A program made the translations under genes and the position numbers. Shown in pieces: positions 1,788 to 38,384 of a stretch of DNA of 41,500 bases. The DNA lies in assembly GCA_035438505.1 (NCBI GenBank), contig DAORIM010000003.1, positions 1 to 41,500 of the forward strand. The letters are read 5' to 3'. The stretch comes from Minisyncoccota bacterium. GTDB lineage: Bacteria; Patescibacteriota; Minisyncoccia; Phycocordibacterales; Phycocordibacteraceae. The notes under the pieces were generated by a model that was given only the letters and a program-made list of their open reading frames with translations, was not told where the DNA came from and did no database searches. Position 1 is the stretch's first letter. Every line of letters begins with the position of its first letter.

Positions 1788-2240
1788 CTATTCTGGAAAG
1801 GAAAATATCTTTGCCGCGCCGTTAGATTCAATATGTCCCATCAAATCCTCCTGGCATAGGAACTTAGGGAGAATAGAGGTTGTTCTTGGATCTAAGAAAT
1901 CGATGCTTTCGATTTCCTCTGCTGCGTGCGTTGTGTTCTCTAGGTCTACTTCTAGATAATCAGCAGGATTTGCTATGTGGAAGAAGAACTCAAGCTGATC
2001 ATTTTCCTTAAATTGAAACTGATGGACATACAGCAGGTTTCCAATCTCCGGCGCCACCCCAGTCTCTTCGAGCATCTCGCGTACAAGAGCTACTTGTAAC
2101 GGCTCACCATCATCAACTGTTCCTCCAGGAAGACATCGCCAACCGCCTTCTAGTGCAGCCATCTCGTTGTACGGCTTCAACTTAACGCACAGAAGCTTCC
2201 TTTCGTGTACCGCGATGCCTCTTACGGAAACTCTTCTCAT
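1788..2240 (-). CDS. Nudix hydrolase
   Basis: Complete Nudix box GTVDDGEPLQVALVREMLEETGV (G-x5-E-x7-REUxEExGU). Confidence 0.85.
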   Translation of the reverse strand: MRRVSVRGIAVHERKLLCVKLKPYNEMAALEGGWRCLPGGTVDDGEPLQVALVREMLEETGVAPEIGNLLYVHQFQFKENDQLEFFFHIANPADYLEVDLENTTHAAEEIESIDFLDPRTTSILPKFLCQEDLMGHIESNGAAKIFSFPE

Positions 2241-2946: not shown

Positions 2947-3363
2947 TTAAGCCGCAGTTGCTAAATAATCCTTCAGTCTCTCCTGCAGCCTGGGGACAGC
3001 GTTCTCGTGAGCAATAAATTCCTCTGGTTCCATAAACTGCCACCTCTGACCTTCTTCTCCAAAGGAAATCGAATCGACGTCCTTCTTGCTTATTCTTGCT
3101 ACAAAAAAATGCGCGCGGCCGCCGGGGATATCAGTAGAGGGATACTCTTTTGTCCACACCACAGATTCAGGATCTAGATATATACCGAACTCCTCAATCA
3201 ATTCTCGCTGGACACACTCGATAGGGGTTTCGTTATCTTCTCGCCCTCCTCCAGGCAAATCCCACATACCAGCGAAATTAAGACCTGGCTTATCGTCTCG
3301 CAAATAGACTACCAGTTGATTCTCGTAATACAGAGCGATTTTGCAGCCAGTAAATGCAGTCAT
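2947..3363 (-). CDS. Nudix hydrolase
   Basis: Nudix box GGREDNETPIECVQRELIEEFGI. Confidence 0.85.
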   Translation of the reverse strand: MTAFTGCKIALYYENQLVVYLRDDKPGLNFAGMWDLPGGGREDNETPIECVQRELIEEFGIYLDPESVVWTKEYPSTDIPGGRAHFFVARISKKDVDSISFGEEGQRWQFMEPEEFIAHENAVPRLQERLKDYLATAA

Positions 3364-3411: not shown

Positions 3412-5328
3412 CTACTCAAGCACTGCCTTGATTCTGCGAATGCCCGCAGCAACAGCCTCCTCCTTCTGAATACGGAACTTCCTTCCCCCTGCGTGTATTT
3501 CAGACGTATTCGTAACATGCGGACCGCCACAGAACTCTAGAGAGAATGCGTTCGGAATGTCCGGATTCCCTTCTACAGCATGAGCAGGACCAACGGAATA
3601 CACCGAGACCATATCCGGGTACTTAACACCAAACTCCATCTGTGCTCCAAGCTTCTCAGCCTCGTCTCGCGGCATAACCGTGCGGGTAACGGGAAGATCC
3701 TGGTACACCACTTCGTTAACGATTCTCTCTACTTCAGCCTTCTGCTCGTCCGTCATCTTTCCTGGAGACGCAAAGTCGATGCGCAACCGCTCGCTCGTAA
3801 TGTTTGAGCCGCGCTGCACAACTTCGCTTCCAAGTACCATCTGAAGTGCCTTGAGAAGGATGTGGTGTGTAGTGTGGTATCGAACAGTCTGTTCTGAGTG
3901 GTCTGCGAGTCCGCCTGCGAACTTCTGCGCCGCTCCTGCGCGGGACTGGTCCTGGTGCTCCTTCATCTTTTGGGCAACTGCTTCAGTATCGAGCGTAAGT
4001 CCGCGCTCTTTTGCGAGCTCTTCCGTGAGCTCAATAGGGAAGCCGTAGCTTGTAAACAAAACGTATGCGTCTTCCGGCATAATCGCGCTCTTTGCTGCAA
4101 GCTTCTCAAACTCTTTAAGGCCTGTTGCGAGCGTCTTCCTAAACTTCTCTTCCTCCTTTGCTAGCTCTTCGCGTATTGTGTCAGCGTTCTGAAGTACGTA
4201 TGGGTATTGATCCGCATACGCTTCCCCGTATCCCTGAGCAACGTAAGCAAGTACGGCGTCCTTAATACCGAGTCTGTCTGCTTCGCGAATAGCGCGGCGA
4301 ATAAGACGGCGAAGCACATACCCTGCCTCAGTGTTGGAAGGCTTGATGCCTTCTGCAAGCATGAAGGATGCCGCGCGCATGTGGTCGAGGATGATGCGGA
4401 ATGCCTTGGTTGTAGCAGCATCAGATCCATAGGCAACGCCAGATCGCCCCTCAAGGACCGCTTTCGCTGCATCAAATACGTCAATCTGGAACACGTCAGA
4501 CTCGCCCATGCTTGTCGCCACAATGCGTTCAAGGCCGCCGCCGAAGTCCACGTTCTTCTTTGGAAGCTCAGAGAAGCTGCCGTCTGCATTCTTCATGTAC
4601 TGCATGAATACGGAGTTCGCGATCTCAACAAAGCGTCCGCAATCACAGTTAACGTGACAGTTCTCTCCCCACGAAGAGTCGTGCGGCGTGCCGAAGTCAT
4701 AGAAAATCTCTGAGTCCGGGCCACCGGGCTCTCCTGCTGGTTGCTTGGACGGTGCACCGGCGCGGCTCCACCAATTCTTGTCGCCGTACGCAAATATGCG
4801 CTCGCCTGCTTTCATGCCGCGCTCGTATCCTTCTTCTTCAGTGCCGATATGCGCAAACTCTGCATCGATACCCTTCTCTTTGAAAAGATCCTTCCAAAGC
4901 GCAACCGCTTCCATGTCCGCTTCAATGCCTGTAGCAGGGTCTCCGGAAAAGACTGTTACGTACAAGCGCTCAGGATCAAAGCCGAGTCCCTCTTCCTTGC
5001 TGGTTAGAAATTCAAATACCCACGGAAGCTGCTCCTGCTTGAAATAGTCTCCAAGAGACCAGTTTCCGAGCATTTCAAAAAATGTGGTGTGGCGATTGTC
5101 TCCCACTTCCTCAATGTCTCCGGCGCGGAACGAAAGCTGGGAATCAACCAGACGCGTTCCTGCCGGATGCTGCTCTCCTAAGAGATATGGCACCAACGGC
5201 TGCATACCCGACGACGTGAAGAGCGTCGTAGGATCGTTCCCGGGCACAATTGGCGCCGAAGGAATAACGGCGTGCCCGCGCTTCTCATAGAACGCAAGAA
5301 ATCGAGATCGTACTTCTGAAAGCCTCAT
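3412..5328 (-). CDS. alaS: alanine--tRNA ligase, short form without C-Ala domain
   Basis: N-terminus MRLSEVRSRFLAFYEKRGHAVIPSAPIVP..DPTTLFTSSGMQ. Editing-domain motifs HTTHHILLKAL and CGGPHV. Only 638 aa. Confidence 0.92.
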   Translation of the reverse strand: MRLSEVRSRFLAFYEKRGHAVIPSAPIVPGNDPTTLFTSSGMQPLVPYLLGEQHPAGTRLVDSQLSFRAGDIEEVGDNRHTTFFEMLGNWSLGDYFKQEQLPWVFEFLTSKEEGLGFDPERLYVTVFSGDPATGIEADMEAVALWKDLFKEKGIDAEFAHIGTEEEGYERGMKAGERIFAYGDKNWWSRAGAPSKQPAGEPGGPDSEIFYDFGTPHDSSWGENCHVNCDCGRFVEIANSVFMQYMKNADGSFSELPKKNVDFGGGLERIVATSMGESDVFQIDVFDAAKAVLEGRSGVAYGSDAATTKAFRIILDHMRAASFMLAEGIKPSNTEAGYVLRRLIRRAIREADRLGIKDAVLAYVAQGYGEAYADQYPYVLQNADTIREELAKEEEKFRKTLATGLKEFEKLAAKSAIMPEDAYVLFTSYGFPIELTEELAKERGLTLDTEAVAQKMKEHQDQSRAGAAQKFAGGLADHSEQTVRYHTTHHILLKALQMVLGSEVVQRGSNITSERLRIDFASPGKMTDEQKAEVERIVNEVVYQDLPVTRTVMPRDEAEKLGAQMEFGVKYPDMVSVYSVGPAHAVEGNPDIPNAFSLEFCGGPHVTNTSEIHAGGRKFRIQKEEAVAAGIRRIKAVLE

Positions 5329-13283: not shown

Positions 13284-16157
13284 TTACCTTATAACCAGGT
13301 TGAGGATACGGCCAGGTACATACACGGTTTTCTGGATTGTACCGGTCTCAAGCGCGTCTTGCACAGGCTTGAGCTCCTTGGCCTTATTCAGCGCTTCTTC
13401 ATCTGAATCTTCATGAAGAAGCTGCAGCTCCGCCCTCTTTTTTCCATTGATCTGCACGATAACGAGCACGGTATCCTCGCGCACCGCTTCGCGCTCTGGC
13501 CACGAAGCCTGATGCACTGACCCTTCAGCCCCGATCTGCTCCCAAAGCTTCTCTGCAAGATGCGGCGCGTACGGCGCAAGCAGCTGCAGAAGCTCCGTAT
13601 ACGCTTCATGCGACACCGCAGGGAGTGCTTCGAGATCGCGCACGAGCACCATGAGCGCTGAAAGCGCTGTATTGAACTTAAAGCGCTCCGTATCCTCCGT
13701 TACTTTCCCTCCAGCCTTTGCGAGCGAGCGCGCTTCGTCCTCCGATACCTCGCCAGCAACAACTTTGTCTCGCAGCGTATAGACACGATCGAGGAATTTG
13801 CGCATAGCAAACACGCCGTCAAGATTCCACGGATACGTGCCCGGCTCGTTATATGGACCAATGAAGGCGAGGTACATGCGCACGGCGTCCGCGCCGTACT
13901 CCTTCACAACCGCATCCGGATTCACTACGTTCCCCTTAGACTTCGACATCTTTGCGCCATCAGGACCCAGAATAAGGCCGCGATTGAAGCGCTCTATAAA
14001 CGGCTCGGACGTTGGCGCGAGCGCCAAGTCATACAGCGCCTTATAGAAGAAGCGCGCATACAGAAGATGCATGGTGGTGTGCTCGCTTCCGCCTGAGTAG
14101 CGGTTAACAGGAAGCCAGCGTTTGAGCATAGTCTGGTCAGTGAAGTCGTGATCGTCCTTAGAGTCCAAGTAGCGCATGAAATACCACGACGAATCCACGA
14201 AGGTATCGAGCGTATCGTACTCAGGAGTCCATCCTTCGCCGAAGATGCGCGTTACCCGCTCCTTAAGCTCAGTAGAGGTCGCAAGCGGCGACTTGTCTGA
14301 AGGAGAGAAATCGACATCCGTTGGGAGTAGCCACGGAAGATGTTCTGCGGGAATAGGATGCGGCATCCCTTCAGGGTCATAGACCACAGGAATAGGACAG
14401 CCCCAATACCGCTGACGTGATACCAGCCAATCGCGCAGACGGTAATTAGTTACCGGCTCCCCGCCGACAAATGCGACGATCTCCTGTATTGCTTCGCGGT
14501 TATTGCGGCCGTCGAACTCTCCTGAATTCCTGAGCAAGCCGTCTCCGGCGTAGGCGCCTGGGCGCATAAAGCGCGCGAGCGTATAGAGGTGCTGGTCGTC
14601 ATGAATGTCTCGCTGCGCGTCCTCAACCGAGACCCATTCAACCGTAAACTTGCCCTTCTCATTCTCCTCAAGCTCAGGCTCCTTCTGCGCGTCGCTTGTA
14701 AGACGGAAATGCAGGAGCGTTGTGTGTGCGAGCGTTGCCTGATTCTTTGAGAACGCGAAGTATCCGTGATGCACCATCTCATCTGCGCGCTCAACGAGCT
14801 CTATGTCAGTGTATCCAGTTTCCTCTGTTATCTCACGCGCAGCAGTAACGGCAGGATCTTCGTCCTCTTCAACCGTTCCTCCTACAAGCAGACGTCCACC
14901 GAGCTCAGGCTTCCAGTGTATGGTGAGCACTTTCCCTTCGTACTCCACCACGGCAACTATCTTTCCCTTGTGCGCAGGATTCTCCTGCTCTTCGCCGGTT
15001 ACCGGATCAATTACATACGTAACAGGGAGGTCCATCATCTTTGCGAACGCGAAGTCGCGCTCGTCATGCGCAGGTACGGCCATAACGGCTCCTGTGCCGT
15101 AGGATGCGAGCACGTAGTCTGCGATAAATACGGGAATCTCCTGCTTGGTTGCAGGATTTATCGCCATAACGCCCTCAAGGCGTACACCGGTCTTTGTCTT
15201 GTTCTCAAGACGCTCACGCTCGCTTTTCTTTGCAGTAGCTTCTACGTACTTAGCTACTTCGCTCTTATTCTCAACCACGTCGTCGTTATCAGTGTCCCAA
15301 ATGGCACGCACCCACGGATGCTCTGGCGCGAGTACAAGATAGGTAGCGCCGAATATGGTATCCGGACGTGTTGTAAACACTTCTATGCGTGCAGGATTTC
15401 CCTCCTGATCCTCCCAATCATTGTGCTCTGGATGCTTTACAAAAGAGAGTGAGAAGGGGATTTTTGCGCCCTCGGACTTTCCTATCCACGCCCGCTGCGA
15501 TTCTTTTATCTCTTCGCGCCATGGGAGCGGATCGAGGTCAGCGAGCAGGCGGTCCGCATACTTGGTAATGCCCATAAACCACTGTGTGAGCTTCTTCTCC
15601 TCAACCTCTGTGCCGCAGCGCTCGCATGCGCCGTCAACAACCTGCTCGTTTGCGAGCACCGTTTGATCCTTCGGACACCATTTAACAGCAGCTTCCTTGC
15701 GGTATGCAAGCCCATGATCATAGAGCTTGGTGAAGAGCCACTGCGTCCACTTGTAGTACTCAGGGCTTGAAGTAACAACTTCCTTGCTCCAATCAACTGA
15801 GGTTCCCATAGAGCGCACCTGCTCGCGCATCGTCTCCATGTTCTGCAGCGTCCAGGCTGCAGGATCTTTTCCGTACTTAATAGCAGCATTCTCTGCAGGA
15901 AGCCCAAAGGAATCGAATCCCATAGGAAACAGCACGTTCTTCCCCTGCATGCGCTTCAAGCGTGCAAAGATGTCGGTAAGCGCGAACGCATACCAGTGGC
16001 CTATGTGGAGATCTCCAGAGGGATACGGGAATTCAAACAGCAGGTAGTACGGATCCTTGTTCTCGTCCGCAAGATCAACTTCGTATAAGTTGAGGCTCGC
16101 CCATTTCGCCTGGGCTTCGTGCTCTATCGCTGCGTGATCAAAGCGTTCCTTGGCCAT
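13284..16157 (-). CDS. leuS: leucine--tRNA ligase carrying an internal Nudix-domain insertion
   Basis: HIGH (aa 51-54), CP1 editing motifs TTRPDT and GTGAVMAVPAHDERD, YRLRDWLVSRQRYWG, KMSKS. 957 aa. Confidence 0.93.
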   Translation of the reverse strand: MAKERFDHAAIEHEAQAKWASLNLYEVDLADENKDPYYLLFEFPYPSGDLHIGHWYAFALTDIFARLKRMQGKNVLFPMGFDSFGLPAENAAIKYGKDPAAWTLQNMETMREQVRSMGTSVDWSKEVVTSSPEYYKWTQWLFTKLYDHGLAYRKEAAVKWCPKDQTVLANEQVVDGACERCGTEVEEKKLTQWFMGITKYADRLLADLDPLPWREEIKESQRAWIGKSEGAKIPFSLSFVKHPEHNDWEDQEGNPARIEVFTTRPDTIFGATYLVLAPEHPWVRAIWDTDNDDVVENKSEVAKYVEATAKKSERERLENKTKTGVRLEGVMAINPATKQEIPVFIADYVLASYGTGAVMAVPAHDERDFAFAKMMDLPVTYVIDPVTGEEQENPAHKGKIVAVVEYEGKVLTIHWKPELGGRLLVGGTVEEDEDPAVTAAREITEETGYTDIELVERADEMVHHGYFAFSKNQATLAHTTLLHFRLTSDAQKEPELEENEKGKFTVEWVSVEDAQRDIHDDQHLYTLARFMRPGAYAGDGLLRNSGEFDGRNNREAIQEIVAFVGGEPVTNYRLRDWLVSRQRYWGCPIPVVYDPEGMPHPIPAEHLPWLLPTDVDFSPSDKSPLATSTELKERVTRIFGEGWTPEYDTLDTFVDSSWYFMRYLDSKDDHDFTDQTMLKRWLPVNRYSGGSEHTTMHLLYARFFYKALYDLALAPTSEPFIERFNRGLILGPDGAKMSKSKGNVVNPDAVVKEYGADAVRMYLAFIGPYNEPGTYPWNLDGVFAMRKFLDRVYTLRDKVVAGEVSEDEARSLAKAGGKVTEDTERFKFNTALSALMVLVRDLEALPAVSHEAYTELLQLLAPYAPHLAEKLWEQIGAEGSVHQASWPEREAVREDTVLVIVQINGKKRAELQLLHEDSDEEALNKAKELKPVQDALETGTIQKTVYVPGRILNLVIR
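14562..14975 (-). other. Nudix hydrolase domain inserted within LeuRS (aa about 395-532)
   Basis: Complete Nudix box GTVEEDEDPAVTAAREITEETGY within 14811..14882. The insert lies between AHDERDFAFAKMMDLPVTYVI and LLRNSGEFDG, a spacing of about 20 aa in E. coli LeuRS as I recall it. Confidence 0.75.
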
Positions 16158-19993: not shown

Positions 19994-21102
19994 TACCCGT
20001 GCAAAAACACCATCACGTCGCCGTCGTTAACTACGTACGGCTTTCCTTCTGTTTTGAGGTGTCCCTTGTCACGCGCTGCGCTCCATGAGCCGTCTGCAAG
20101 CAGCGTATCCCACGGCACCACTTCTGCACGGATAAACTTCTCCTTGAAGTCGTTATGGATCGCTGCGCCAGCTTCGGGCGCTGTTGCTCCGCGCGTAATA
20201 GTCCAGGCGCGCGATTCCTTGGGGCCTGTGGTGAAGAACGTAATGAGACCGAGCGCTTCGTACGCACCGCGAATAAGCGCATCGAGTCCGTCTACCTGCA
20301 CACCAAGCTCCGAACGGAACATGTCTTTGTCTTCGTTCGCAACGTCGTTCAGCTCGTGCTCGGTGCGAGCATCCACTTCTACATACTGGCTTCCCAAGGA
20401 CTCTACGAGCTCGTACGCGGCCTGTGCGCGCCCGTCACTTATCTCTGAAAGATTATGCCCTCCAGCTTTCCCGTTAAAGGAGTAGAGGATTGGCTTTCGG
20501 GTGAGAAGGTTGAGCGATTTAATGCGCTTCGCTTCTTCTTCCTCAAGAGATACCGTGCGGGCGAGCTTTCCAGACACCAGCGCCTGCTCTATTTTCGCGA
20601 GTACTGCGTCCTCTGCAACCGCGTCTTTGTTATTCATCTTCACGTCGCGCTGCAGCTTCTCCCTACGACTCGATACAGACTGCTGATCCGCAAGAATAAG
20701 CTCGAGGTTGATAATCTCGATATCGCGCACCGGATCAACTTCTCCATGCACGTGAATAATGTCAGGATCGTCAAAGAAGCGAACCATCTGCAAGATTGCA
20801 TCCACTTCGCGAATATGGGAAAGGAACTGGTTGCCAAGTCCTTCGCCCTCGCTCGCACCCTTCACGAGTCCTGCAATGTCCACGAATTCAATAACGGCAG
20901 GCAGCGTCTTCTCAGACTTTGAGAGCTCTGCGAGCTGGTCAAGGCGGGCGTCCGGCACGCCAACAACACCCACGGAAGGGTCAATAGTGCAGAACGGGTA
21001 ATTCTCCGCAGGGACTGCGGCCTTGGTAAGCGCATTAAAGAGGGTGGACTTCCCGACGTTCGGGAGTCCTACGATGCCTATCTGTAGTTTTGAACCAGCC
21101 AT
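19993..21102 (-). CDS. ychF: redox-regulated ATPase YchF (Obg-like GTPase family)
   Basis: IGIVGLPNVGKSTLFNALT P-loop and conserved C-terminal TGS-like region GKPYVVNDGDVMVF. Confidence 0.92.
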   Translation of the reverse strand: MAGSKLQIGIVGLPNVGKSTLFNALTKAAVPAENYPFCTIDPSVGVVGVPDARLDQLAELSKSEKTLPAVIEFVDIAGLVKGASEGEGLGNQFLSHIREVDAILQMVRFFDDPDIIHVHGEVDPVRDIEIINLELILADQQSVSSRREKLQRDVKMNNKDAVAEDAVLAKIEQALVSGKLARTVSLEEEEAKRIKSLNLLTRKPILYSFNGKAGGHNLSEISDGRAQAAYELVESLGSQYVEVDARTEHELNDVANEDKDMFRSELGVQVDGLDALIRGAYEALGLITFFTTGPKESRAWTITRGATAPEAGAAIHNDFKEKFIRAEVVPWDTLLADGSWSAARDKGHLKTEGKPYVVNDGDVMVFLHG

Positions 21103-22678
21103 TAGAAGATTTGATTGGGATGAATCCGGTGACCAGGAGACTTTCCTGGGAGCCGACGATTTTCTCCACGGTATTCAACACTATGGCCCGTTTCTGCTCG
21201 AAACTCAAGTCAGCGAGCGTTGCACCCGCTTCTTTTGCGAAAGCGTGTACCTCTTCAATCGTCGGAAGGATGTCTACTCCCAGACGCTGCGCCTCCTCAC
21301 GAGCCTTGAATACGAGCGCTTCGAGGTTAGCCACCTTCTCACGTACAGGGGTGGTGTATTGTTTCAACTCCTCAAGAGTAAATACACCTGAGCCATACGC
21401 CTTGGTATAGCGCTCTTCTTCTTTCTTAAGCTTCTCAATCTCCTTCTGGGTAGCTGTAGTATCTCCAATGGCATTCTTGGACTTCGCCTTTCGTGCATTC
21501 ATCCAGCGCTCTGCCTGTTCAAGAAGTAAATCTGGGTTACTCATGAGATCAGACAACGTTGCCCACACGAGAGGGTCTGCGTTGCCTGCACTAATAGGAT
21601 TCTCGAAGCACGTTCTTGGAAGAGGGAAGCAATACGCCTTGTCGCAACAATCGTAGTAGAGATACTTCCCACCCTTGCGTGCTGCGCCAACGCGCTTGCG
21701 TCCACAGACACATTCAACTTTTCCGCTGAGCAGGTAGTCATACTTACGACTCCGAGGGTTGAGGGCCACATGAGCTTCCAGGCGTACCCGTACCCGTTCA
21801 AATATCTCATCATCAACGATCCGAGGTACCGGAACACTCAACCACTCCTCCTTGGGACGAGCCTTGCGACTACTCTTCTTGTTCTTGCGATACTTCTCTT
21901 TATTGATAGGGTTCTCAGGAACTATTGCGATAGAACTCCGGTAGTGAGCATGTCCTACATATGCACCGTTGCGAAGCATGGAGGTCAGGGTGCTTGTAGC
22001 CCACACACCCCGTACACTTTTCCTAGGCTTAACTCCCTGCTCCCCTAGTCGCTGTACGACCTGACGAATAGTTAGACCCTCATCACCAATCCACGTGAAT
22101 ATCTTACGGACCACCGCAGCCTCTTCTTCGTTGATTTCGTAGTACCCGTGCTGCTTATCTCGCTTGGGGATGTAGTTGAACCCATACAAGGGTGAGCTCA
22201 CGAGGATGTGTCCTTCACTAATCTTGCGCAGCTTACCGAGACGAAAACGCTCTCCGATCTTTGCACGCTCATACTCTGCGAAGAGACCACGAACACCGTG
22301 CAGAATCTTGTCCTCGCTGTTCTTCGGCGCCTCTATGGTTACAAAGAGTGTTTCGATTCCGGCATCACGCAGATCATCCATGATAAGTGCCTGGTATGAG
22401 TACCTCCGAGCGAGACGGTCAGGATCGTATGAAAGCACCGCATCCCAGAGCTTCGCTTTAACATCCTGCCTCAGAGCGTCGAGCGCTGGACGAGCCAACA
22501 CGTCGCCACTCCAACCGTCGTCTGTGTACTCACGAACAATCGTAAGGTTGTTCTCCTTTGCGTATGCACGTACCGCAGCGAGCTGTGTCTCAATTGTTCC
22601 ATCTTCTTCTTGGCGTGCAGTTGATACACGTCCATAGACAGCAACAAGACGTCCTGGAGGCAATTCTTTACTAGGCAT
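21035..22678 (-). CDS. large serine recombinase (integrase)
   Basis: N-terminal resolvase domain LVAVYGRVSTARQEEDG (catalytic Ser), recombinase domain, Cys-rich zinc ribbon (CVCGRK...YYDCC) and a coiled-coil tail. The last 22 codons overlap the ychF 5' end. Confidence 0.88.
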   Translation of the reverse strand: MPSKELPPGRLVAVYGRVSTARQEEDGTIETQLAAVRAYAKENNLTIVREYTDDGWSGDVLARPALDALRQDVKAKLWDAVLSYDPDRLARRYSYQALIMDDLRDAGIETLFVTIEAPKNSEDKILHGVRGLFAEYERAKIGERFRLGKLRKISEGHILVSSPLYGFNYIPKRDKQHGYYEINEEEAAVVRKIFTWIGDEGLTIRQVVQRLGEQGVKPRKSVRGVWATSTLTSMLRNGAYVGHAHYRSSIAIVPENPINKEKYRKNKKSSRKARPKEEWLSVPVPRIVDDEIFERVRVRLEAHVALNPRSRKYDYLLSGKVECVCGRKRVGAARKGGKYLYYDCCDKAYCFPLPRTCFENPISAGNADPLVWATLSDLMSNPDLLLEQAERWMNARKAKSKNAIGDTTATQKEIEKLKKEEERYTKAYGSGVFTLEELKQYTTPVREKVANLEALVFKAREEAQRLGVDILPTIEEVHAFAKEAGATLADLSFEQKRAIVLNTVEKIVGSQESLLVTGFIPIKSSNGWFKTTDRHRRTPERREVHPL

Positions 22679-38170: not shown

Positions 38171-38384
38171 TCGGGTGGTCGTTAGGCCAATAACCCCCGA
38201 AGTGGGTACGCAAAAGTCCCACCCCAAGGCCTGACCGAAGCCAGCATGCAAGTTTCCCTACATGGCCAAACAGACCACCCCAGGATGGGGCCTTTGCGTC
38301 TGTTTGGACTTAGTACTAGCGACCATACCGACGAATGAATCCGTACGGGTTAGGTCTCTTATTTAGTTGTTTCCCTCTGGTAAA
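38171..38384 (-). ncRNA. structured 5' leader or independent ncRNA (unclassified)
   Basis: Minus-sense features: a 10-bp hairpin CCAAACAGAC/GTCTGTTTGG enclosing CCCCA-TCC-TGGGG. An alternative 14-bp long-range helix GGTGGTCTGTTTGGCC/GGCCTAACGACCACC ends 4 nt before ATG 38170. There is a C(UUCG)G-capped stem CTGGC-UUCG-GUCAG. G-U pairs favour minus-sense RNA. Confidence 0.35.

Follow-up and report, generated by a model that had tools for sequence, protein, structure and literature searches.

A complete Nudix hydrolase domain is nested inside the editing domain of a bacterial leucyl-tRNA synthetase (LeuRS) encoded by a Minisyncoccota bacterium, and the same architecture recurs in LeuRSs of other Patescibacteria, with Nudix domains of widely differing sequence at one and the same site. 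The host gene, leuS, lies on a stretch of 41,500 nucleotides (assembly GCA_035438505.1, contig DAORIM010000003.1, positions 1-41,500, forward strand), hereafter called the window. There it occupies positions 13284..16157 of the minus strand as one continuous reading frame of 957 amino acids. The Nudix domain and its linkers, hereafter called the cassette, take up residues 385-534 (14556..15005, minus strand), with bounds taken from alignment with T. thermophilus LeuRS and with three Nudix-less orthologues (P0080, P0110, and P0277). A first-pass annotation of this DNA had placed a Nudix domain on the editing-domain side of the enzyme and treated it as a singular oddity. The placement holds, as the domain is nested within the CP1 editing domain of an otherwise canonical LeuRS; the singularity does not, since the fusion is widespread and diverse in Patescibacteria and was already present, unremarked, in public databases. 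That annotation could recall no described LeuRS-Nudix fusion, and a literature search likewise found no publication on one, no account of a Nudix domain nested in the LeuRS editing domain, and no report that strains exchange an enzyme domain nested in any aminoacyl-tRNA synthetase (aaRS).

The identity of the host enzyme is clear from several lines of evidence. The NCBIfam equivalog model for bacterial LeuRS (TIGR00396, leuS_bact) scored the leuS product at 864.1 bits against a cutoff of 548.4, matching it in two stretches with the insert between them. In a phmmer search of PDB sequences, the product matched the LeuRSs of T. thermophilus (E 1e-189) and E. coli (E 1e-177), and Pfam recognized a class I synthetase core, the LeuRS editing domain (tRNA-synt_1_2, residues 222-399), an anticodon-binding domain, and NUDIX. 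An AlphaFold2 model of the whole protein, built on a 68-sequence alignment, reached a mean predicted local distance difference test (pLDDT) score of 84.9 and about 90 over the insert, and its best Foldseek matches were the LeuRS structures 5on2, 4aq7, and 2bte.

All of the LeuRS motifs named in the first-pass annotation were found on the minus strand. The HIGH signature of the class I catalytic core lies at residues 51-54 (15996..16007). The N-terminal part of CP1 (residues 222-384, 15006..15494) contains the TTRPDT motif (residues 262-267, 15357..15374) and the GTGAVMAVPAHDERD editing motif (residues 354-368, 15054..15098). The C-terminal return of CP1, beginning with AYAGDGLLRNSGEFDG, spans residues 535-571 (14445..14555), aligns with T. 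thermophilus LeuRS from residue 376 on, and includes the invariant G540; the recombination tracts described below end in this flank. It is followed by YRLRDW..RQRYWG (residues 572-586) and the KMSKS loop (residues 736-740, 13938..13952). Among 120 relatives, the set used for all LeuRS motif counts, H51, G53, and H54 of the HIGH signature are invariant, as are K736, M737, S738, and K739 of the KMSKS loop, the last serine of which is kept in 97. Since the residues of HIGH, TTRPDT, GTG..HDERD, and KMSKS are invariant or almost so whether the cassette is present or not, the host LeuRS appears to be fully competent for both synthesis and editing.

Two further features of the host were recorded. The window LeuRS has an additional segment of about 14 residues (238-251) early in CP1. 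It also has no counterpart to residues 583-635 of T. thermophilus LeuRS, the leucine-specific domain, as these residues fall between the neighboring query residues 734 and 735 in the alignment (window ~13950..13960, before KMSKS); its relatives likewise have no segment matching 583-635. The leucine-specific domain is present in the E. coli and T. thermophilus enzymes, is not universal, and is no requirement for membership in the bacterial LeuRS family.

The nested domain is equally recognizable. On the whole LeuRS, the Pfam NUDIX profile PF00293 scored 49.8 bits (gathering score 21.1, E 4.6e-13) over model positions 7-132 of 134, with an envelope at residues 402-528 (14574..14954, minus strand). 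On the excised insert it scored 55.4 bits, far above the gathering score. Translation of 14562..14975 on the minus strand yields the core of the Nudix domain, and 14811..14882 translates to GGTVEEDEDPAVTAAREITEETGY, a perfect fit to the Nudix box G-x5-E-x7-REUxEExGU, so the intact box that had been reported at these positions stands. The box proper, GTVEEDEDPAVTAAREITEETGY, covers residues 427-449 (14811..14879, minus strand) and includes the predicted catalytic residues E442, E445, and E446.

Structural modeling agrees with this assignment. Modeled alone with AlphaFold2, the insert reached a pLDDT of 90.8 and showed the canonical Nudix order of strands and helices: strands at residues 395-406, 409-415, and 425-429, the Nudix helix at 435-447, which carries REITEE, strands at 452-468, 473-486, and 504-510, and helices at 511-517 and 521-531. 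A Foldseek search with this model returned 524 PDB matches at E<=1e-3, of which the best 50 were all Nudix hydrolases. The matches listed include an E. faecalis MutT/nudix protein (2azw; template modeling (TM) scores 0.68/0.71) and the Aquifex Ap4A hydrolase (3i7u; root-mean-square deviation (rmsd) 2.6 A, TM 0.68/0.78), and further MutT1, the diadenosine polyphosphatase Rv2985, ADP-ribose pyrophosphatase, RppH, and NudI; structures of the MutT, ADPRase, and RppH types score alike. The GC content is uniform between the insert and the remainder of leuS, and no Hint/intein or homing-endonuclease Pfam family was found in the leuS product at E<=1. Because the defining features that were tested are present, the leuS product belongs, on sequence grounds, to both the bacterial LeuRS family and the Nudix superfamily, and within the latter it could be assigned to no characterized subfamily.

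In the phmmer alignment, query residues 4-390 correspond to residues 2-368 of T. thermophilus LeuRS and query residues 535-734 to residues 376-582. Thus, some 144-150 residues stand in for the seven T. thermophilus residues between the two aligned blocks, inside CP1, downstream of the GTG..AHDERD motif and upstream of the NSGxFDG strand. Nudix-less orthologues have 8 (P0080, with the loop EGEAPGAD), about 10 (P0277), or 29 residues (P0110) at this point. Both sizes given in the first-pass annotation therefore need correction: the insert measures about 150 residues rather than about 135, and the ordinary loop, put at about 20 residues for E. coli-type enzymes, is 7 residues long in T. thermophilus LeuRS and 8-29 in the Nudix-less orthologues.

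The fusion is common among close relatives of the window enzyme. When the full LeuRS was searched against 5.8 billion proteins, the best 120 clusters (formed at 90% identity) were evaluated; they are 60-81% identical to the query, and 118 of them contain PF00293. In total, Nudix-bearing LeuRSs were found in more than 130 such clusters across NCBI, JGI, ENA, and Logan, on contigs of up to 795 kb, and the taxon names attached to them are Patescibacteria, Paceibacterota, Parcubacteria, or Kaiserbacteria. When a Nudix-less orthologue served as the query, the domain was present in 91 and absent from 29 of the 120 nearest LeuRS clusters. Searches with the insert point to the same site: a HMMER scan of 1.84 billion representatives gave 156 matches at E<=1e-3, and local hidden Markov models identified the best 150 of these as mostly LeuRS proteins or fragments with the Nudix domain at the same position. 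Among the matches listed, the free-standing Nudix proteins closest to the insert are only about 30% identical to it. The index of 5.8 billion proteins, queried with the insert alone, returned only P0121, a 154-residue fragment without a start methionine that derives from the same region of another LeuRS. A single-protein scan of genome contigs found only six loci, labeled by their submitters as Patescibacteria, Saccharibacteria, or Saccharimonadales, together with one unrelated Nudix protein from Bacillota. No relatives of the cassette were found in a scan of viral contigs, and no conserved stretch of 7-10 columns was present in the insert alignment. In NCBI records, the name "class I tRNA ligase family protein" is given to the Nudix-bearing proteins, whereas "leucine--tRNA ligase" is used for the Nudix-less orthologues; apparently, the insert blocks specific naming by the annotation pipeline.

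The window contig is of the metagenome type, and a mis-join that fused two genes artificially was considered. This explanation is ruled out by the recurrence of the architecture in more than 130 independent clusters from four resources. The unbroken reading frame, the uniform GC content, and the purifying selection on the insert also speak against it, no point in its favor was found, and its probability is negligible.

Comparison of related LeuRSs reveals that the cassette and its host gene vary separately. In pairwise comparisons, the identity of the LeuRS body and that of the insert are uncorrelated (r=0.04), and at least 12 cassette types, delimited at 50% identity, are found on backbones that share at least 65% identity. 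For example, P0035 and P0091 are 97% identical in the body and 33% in the insert; the corresponding values are 95% and 27% for P0031/P0088, 95% and 34% for P0019/P0042, 94% and 28% for P0029/P0103, and 94% and 30% for P0021/P0076. Conversely, some Nudix-less LeuRSs are 97-98% identical in the body to Nudix-bearing ones.

The exchange is also visible in the DNA of closely related loci. Contigs L011 and L012 are collinear with 94.6-98.2% nucleotide identity over about 13 kb, except that some 500 nt of leuS give no blastn match. The upstream breakpoint falls directly after the AHDERD..LP codons, and identity returns about 70-100 nt downstream of the cassette. The sole structural difference between these two contigs (~96% identical) besides the cassette is an extra sigma70_r4 gene in L012 (10911..11774, 287 residues), located between leuS and the conserved sigma70_r4/HARE-HTH gene. 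Contigs L013 and L014, whose source samples are unrelated, share 97-98% identity over 12.8 kb save for leuS nt ~840-1740. Loss or gain is illustrated by L015, whose LeuRS carries the Nudix domain (P0032, 944 residues), and L016, whose LeuRS does not (P0277, 799 residues): the contigs align collinearly at 94% identity, the site measures 484 nt in L015 and 49 nt in L016, and the two LeuRS bodies are 98% identical. The gene order DUF5671-leuS-sigma70_r4/HARE-HTH is the same in all three cassette states and in the window.

Across these 12-13 kb comparisons, the cassette is the sole non-alignable stretch in two of three cases and one of two such stretches in L011/L012, which suggests that selection acts on the cassette itself. 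No silent donor cassettes were found near leuS in loci of 12-19 kb. As a hand-written neighbor-joining tree was star-like, these conclusions rely on pairwise and DNA-level comparison and not on topology. The simplest reading is that homologous recombination through the conserved LeuRS codons on either side of the cassette replaces one allele with another. Swapped and Nudix-less natural variants imply, therefore, that the domain would be an accessory that LeuRS can dispense with. Because the Nudix domain of near-identical LeuRS backbones may be of another type or missing, an obligatory link of the domain to aminoacylation or editing seems unlikely.

Within the cassette, over the 118 Nudix-bearing clusters, to which all counts in this domain refer, G427, E442, E445, and E446 are invariant, as are K471 and W508. 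G448 is found in 115, E500 in 116, R441 in 111, and E433 in 110 (with Q in 7), and a strict regular expression for the Nudix box matches 110 of the 120 relatives. Position 466, which lies 17 residues past the box, is aromatic (Y, F, or W) in every cassette. The invariance of the catalytic residues persists even though cassette types are only 20-45% identical to one another. In a codon comparison of five genes with the same cassette type, the proportion of synonymous differences (pS) was 0.54-0.94, saturated in most pairs, and the proportion of nonsynonymous differences (pN) was 0.09-0.25 in the insert and 0.14-0.21 in the LeuRS body. Given that pN in the insert equals that in the body while synonymous sites are saturated, the Nudix domain is under constraint at the protein level, and it is likely to be catalytically active.

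NCBIfam, PDB sequences, PADLOC, and Foldseek did not place the cassette in a known Nudix subfamily, as all similarities were either below threshold or non-discriminating. The RppH models (PRK00714.x) gave 12-31 bits (13-22 for the window cassette, up to 31 for other types) against cutoffs of 116-259; the NudB model (dihydroneopterin triphosphate diphosphatase, NF006961) gave 24.7-33.2 bits against 103; and the MutT 8-oxo-dGTPase models gave 18-23 bits against 98-148. Models for NudE and ADPRase were likewise below cutoff, with scores under those of NudB and RppH. This pattern of weak subfamily similarity is shared by all cassette types. Sequence matches to ADPRase structures in the PDB reached E values of about 1e-3 over the box region only. 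ADP-ribose pyrophosphatases are marked by a proline about 16 residues past the box, and the corresponding residue 465 in the cassettes is G, E, or S, with no proline. In PADLOC-DB, weak matches to the candidate defense Nudix family PDC-S07 (17-27 bits, E 1e-3 to 1e-6) are compatible with generic Nudix likeness.

Because no characterized subfamily cutoff was reached, any statement about the substrate is a guess. Tentatively, and with the chances lying against it, the substrate may be a (di)nucleoside polyphosphate, a nucleoside triphosphate, or an RNA 5' end, as for Ap4A hydrolase-, RppH-, or NudB-like enzymes. This proposal is based on the nearest structures, the weak profile matches, and the aromatic residue 17 positions past the box, since an aromatic residue (Tyr) about 17 residues past the box is reported by Dunn et al. 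(1999) to mark ApnA hydrolases.

Nested enzyme domains are not confined to the window leuS and extend to other class Ia synthetases of the group. Nine patescibacterial LeuRSs (P0126, P0130, P0136, P0138, P0139, P0143, P0164, P0165, and P0235) contain two to three Nudix domains, some copies in tandem and some at another insertion site, which follows the catalytic core and precedes CP1. A Pfam-confirmed HAD domain lies ahead of CP1 in P0227, and an Abhydrolase_6 domain lies ahead of TTRPDT in P0094. In P0014, an extra insert of about 220 residues with a DFDGV motif directly precedes the Nudix domain; this insert has a HAD-like look and received no Pfam call. The IleRS-like protein P0244 combines Nudix with His_Phos_1, and five further LeuRSs (P0194, P0221, P0238, P0256, and P0261) have inserts of at least 200 residues without an assigned family in their C-terminal half.

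The explanation we favor is that the Nudix domain in LeuRS is an active accessory hydrolase, dispensable for aminoacylation, and from the comparative sequence evidence we judge this to be somewhat probable. In a working LeuRS, a complete Nudix pyrophosphohydrolase domain of about 150 residues would have taken the place of the turn of a CP1 surface hairpin, and this domain would serve as an accessory module outside the leucylation and editing machinery. The same patescibacterial leuS backbone would then carry the Nudix type of the window, unrelated-looking Nudix types, or none, and the variants would be swapped by homologous recombination via AHDERD upstream and NSGxF..RDWLVSRQRYWG downstream. 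While tethered to LeuRS, the Nudix domain would hydrolyze a nucleoside-diphosphate-X compound. The observed part of this account comprises domain identity, fold, insertion site, catalytic-residue conservation, purifying selection, the recurrence of the architecture, and, in the DNA, the exchange and loss of the cassette. Several points weigh against it. The support for activity consists of catalytic-residue conservation and purifying selection; seven of the 118 cassettes have Q at the first glutamate of the box and seven lack its arginine, for which reason some cassette types may differ in activity; and no model of a characterized Nudix subfamily was reached. In addition, at least two free-standing Nudix genes are present in the same window, which leaves the tethering of a third to LeuRS unexplained, and the dispensability of the cassette is inferred from natural variants.

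Physical tethering to an editing domain suggests that, as the first-pass annotation had proposed, the Nudix domain could instead be coupled to the chemistry of the synthetase, clearing the Ap4A or ApnN that LeuRS would make from Leu-AMP and ATP, or mis-activated adenylates, as a form of quality or alarmone control. aaRSs make Ap4A, and among the matches listed the Aquifex Ap4A hydrolase has the lowest rmsd (TMt 0.78), with Rv2985 and RppH also near. Furthermore, RppH models are among the best, although sub-threshold, NCBIfam similarities, and the aromatic residue reportedly typical of ApnA hydrolases is present in all 118 cassettes. Conversely, the RppH scores are far below their cutoffs, and aminoacyl-adenylates are acyl-phosphate anhydrides, outside the nucleoside-diphosphate-X pyrophosphates; their hydrolysis by a Nudix enzyme is chemically unlikely. 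LeuRS backbones that are near-identical and either lack the domain or carry a version only about 30% identical speak against an integral role, and the related LeuRSs with two to three Nudix, HAD, alpha/beta-hydrolase, or other inserts are poorly explained by Ap4A clearance alone. Coupling of this kind is therefore rather unlikely in our estimation. The diversity of inserts fits a different possibility, namely that the domain is a house-cleaning Nudix unrelated to LeuRS and that, in a small genome, a permissive loop of an essential, constitutively expressed gene offers it a harbor that provides expression and is friendly to recombination. The same CP1 region accepts unrelated enzyme domains, including tandem Nudix, HAD, and Abhydrolase_6, and Nudix with His_Phos_1 in the IleRS-like protein; presence varies between strains, the LeuRS motifs are unchanged in every cassette state, and the genes around leuS give no functional hint. 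Neutral carriage accords less well with the cassette being the sole non-alignable stretch in two of three close-locus comparisons and one of two in the third, or with its repeated replacement by divergent types, which suggests selection on the cassette. The free-standing Nudix genes of the window cut both ways here: they count against mere hitch-hiking inasmuch as a Nudix enzyme does not need the fusion to be expressed in this genome. Overall, the harbor explanation is possible, and we hold it to be doubtful.

Alternatively, the cassette would be a conflict or immunity module that has diversified in an arms race. It would guard either LeuRS or tRNA-Leu against nucleotide-based toxicity, for instance from Trojan-horse inhibitors of the aminoacyl-nucleotide type or from ADP-ribosylation, or it would counter a phage or host factor. 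The existence of at least 12 cassette types, their swaps and presence/absence between contigs 94-98% identical, and an invariant catalytic core in an otherwise highly variable cassette are all in keeping with this idea. So are the weak PADLOC matches to PDC-S07, which probably reflect generic Nudix similarity, and an NCBIfam model (NF040702) for an IleRS that contains a GNAT domain. We know of no Nudix enzyme that cleaves phosphoramidate aminoacyl-nucleotides, the viral contigs scanned yielded no relatives of the cassette, and no toxin or defense genes are adjacent to leuS at the loci examined. LeuRS is the target of agrocin 84/TM84, and detoxifiers of aminoacyl-nucleotide aaRS inhibitors are known in the form of the MccE2 GNAT, MccF, and the MccH HIT protein (PMC8323819). 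The case for immunity is wholly circumstantial, and we regard it as improbable. A broader and more speculative version deserves only slightly more credence and is still unlikely: the cassettes would form a strain-variable, recombination-exchanged accessory locus within an essential gene, under diversifying or frequency-dependent selection, and as a conflict or immunity module this locus would protect LeuRS or tRNA-Leu against toxins based on nucleotides or against phage/host effectors; more generally, exchangeable small-molecule hydrolases (Nudix, HAD, histidine phosphatase, and alpha/beta hydrolase) would have evolutionary "docking sites" in the editing domains of patescibacterial class Ia synthetases. 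Lastly, the Nudix fold could be a non-catalytic structural or tRNA-binding appendage that, for example, makes up for the leucine-specific domain. Nested domains in aaRSs often bind RNA, and the window LeuRS has no segment matching T. thermophilus 583-635. A purely structural role would not need the metal-binding glutamates that are invariant over highly diverged cassettes, and judging from their lengths (793-837 residues), the Nudix-less orthologues have no such segment either, so the Nudix domain is not compensating for it; this alternative is very improbable.

The neighborhood of leuS in the window comprises genes for sigma70_r4/HARE-HTH, DUF5671, MgtC, YchF, and MnmA, which have housekeeping functions and offer no functional clue. 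With the leuS domain included, the window encodes at least three Nudix domains. The other two are free-standing genes on the minus strand at 1788..2240 (150 residues, intact box, 49.6 bits in Pfam) and 2947..3363 (138 residues, intact box, 47.9 bits), which are the only other Nudix-coding DNA in the window. They are 11 kb from leuS, about 30-40% identical over the box region, and directly downstream of alaS (3412..5328, minus strand), with a gene for a DUF2268 Zn-protease between the two. No alaS was found upstream in L017, the sole related contig recovered for this adjacency. The AlaRS itself is 638 residues long and matches only tRNA-synt_2c and tRNA_SAD in Pfam. Typical bacterial AlaRSs have about 870 residues, and the C-terminal domain may be absent from the window enzyme. 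A gene for a large serine recombinase (21035..22678, minus strand, 547 residues) with Resolvase and Recombinase domains adjoins ychF and may point to an integrated element. Rfam gave a single match in the window, the LOOT RNA motif (RF03000) at 38231..38356 on the minus strand (51.9 bits, gathering score 46.4), and no tRNA genes were found in the window.

These findings have implications beyond the window. aaRSs are among the most conserved proteins, and stable architectures are expected of them in bacteria; here, a second complete enzyme is located within the proofreading domain of LeuRS. The arrangement spans a large part of the Patescibacteria and behaves as an element of the flexible genome inside an essential gene. 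If the Nudix domain acts on a synthetase-derived nucleotide such as Ap4A, it would constitute a natural and testable case of an aaRS with its own control of by-products. A conflict module, on the other hand, would represent a new mode of embedding accessory defense functions in core genes. From a practical perspective, LeuRS-based trees of candidate phyla radiation (CPR) bacteria can be distorted by the mosaic cassette.

Like the bacterial LeuRSs of T. thermophilus (1H3N/2BYT) and E. coli (4AQ7), the window enzyme has a catalytic core, a CP1 domain with the T-rich and GTG..HD..D motifs, and anticodon-binding and C-terminal domains, and its model resembles these structures with Foldseek TM scores of about 0.7-0.8. 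Unlike them, it has a Nudix domain of 150 residues in place of a 7-residue CP1 loop and lacks the leucine-specific segment (583-635). The cassette shares the box, the alpha/beta/alpha fold, and a similar size with small free-standing Nudix enzymes (3I7U, 2AZW, E. coli RppH, and NudB; TM 0.65-0.79), but it is only 12-23% identical to them in sequence, is nested in another enzyme, and reaches no subfamily cutoff. Precedents exist for extra enzyme domains on HIGH-superfamily enzymes, namely IleRS-GNAT and NadM-Nudix. The former (NF040702, ileS_w_GNAT), catalogued as an "exception" model, also combines a class Ia aaRS with an additional small-molecule-modifying domain, although the aaRS is a different one and the domain is GNAT and not Nudix. 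The latter (PRK05379) joins a HIGH-superfamily nucleotidyltransferase and a Nudix domain on one polypeptide, and a bifunctional NMN adenylyltransferase/Nudix hydrolase has been described for phages (PMC7824862). NadM-Nudix, however, is joined end to end and follows a known metabolic logic (NAD/ADP-ribose), whereas the LeuRS domain is nested in an editing domain, and no metabolite is known to be shared by the two. In its genetics, the cassette resembles inteins, which are likewise nested in conserved essential genes, vary in presence between close strains, and have conserved flanks that favor transfer by recombination. In contrast to inteins, the LeuRS insert carries no Hint or homing-endonuclease domain; it is an ordinary enzyme fold under purifying selection that is presumably kept in the mature protein.

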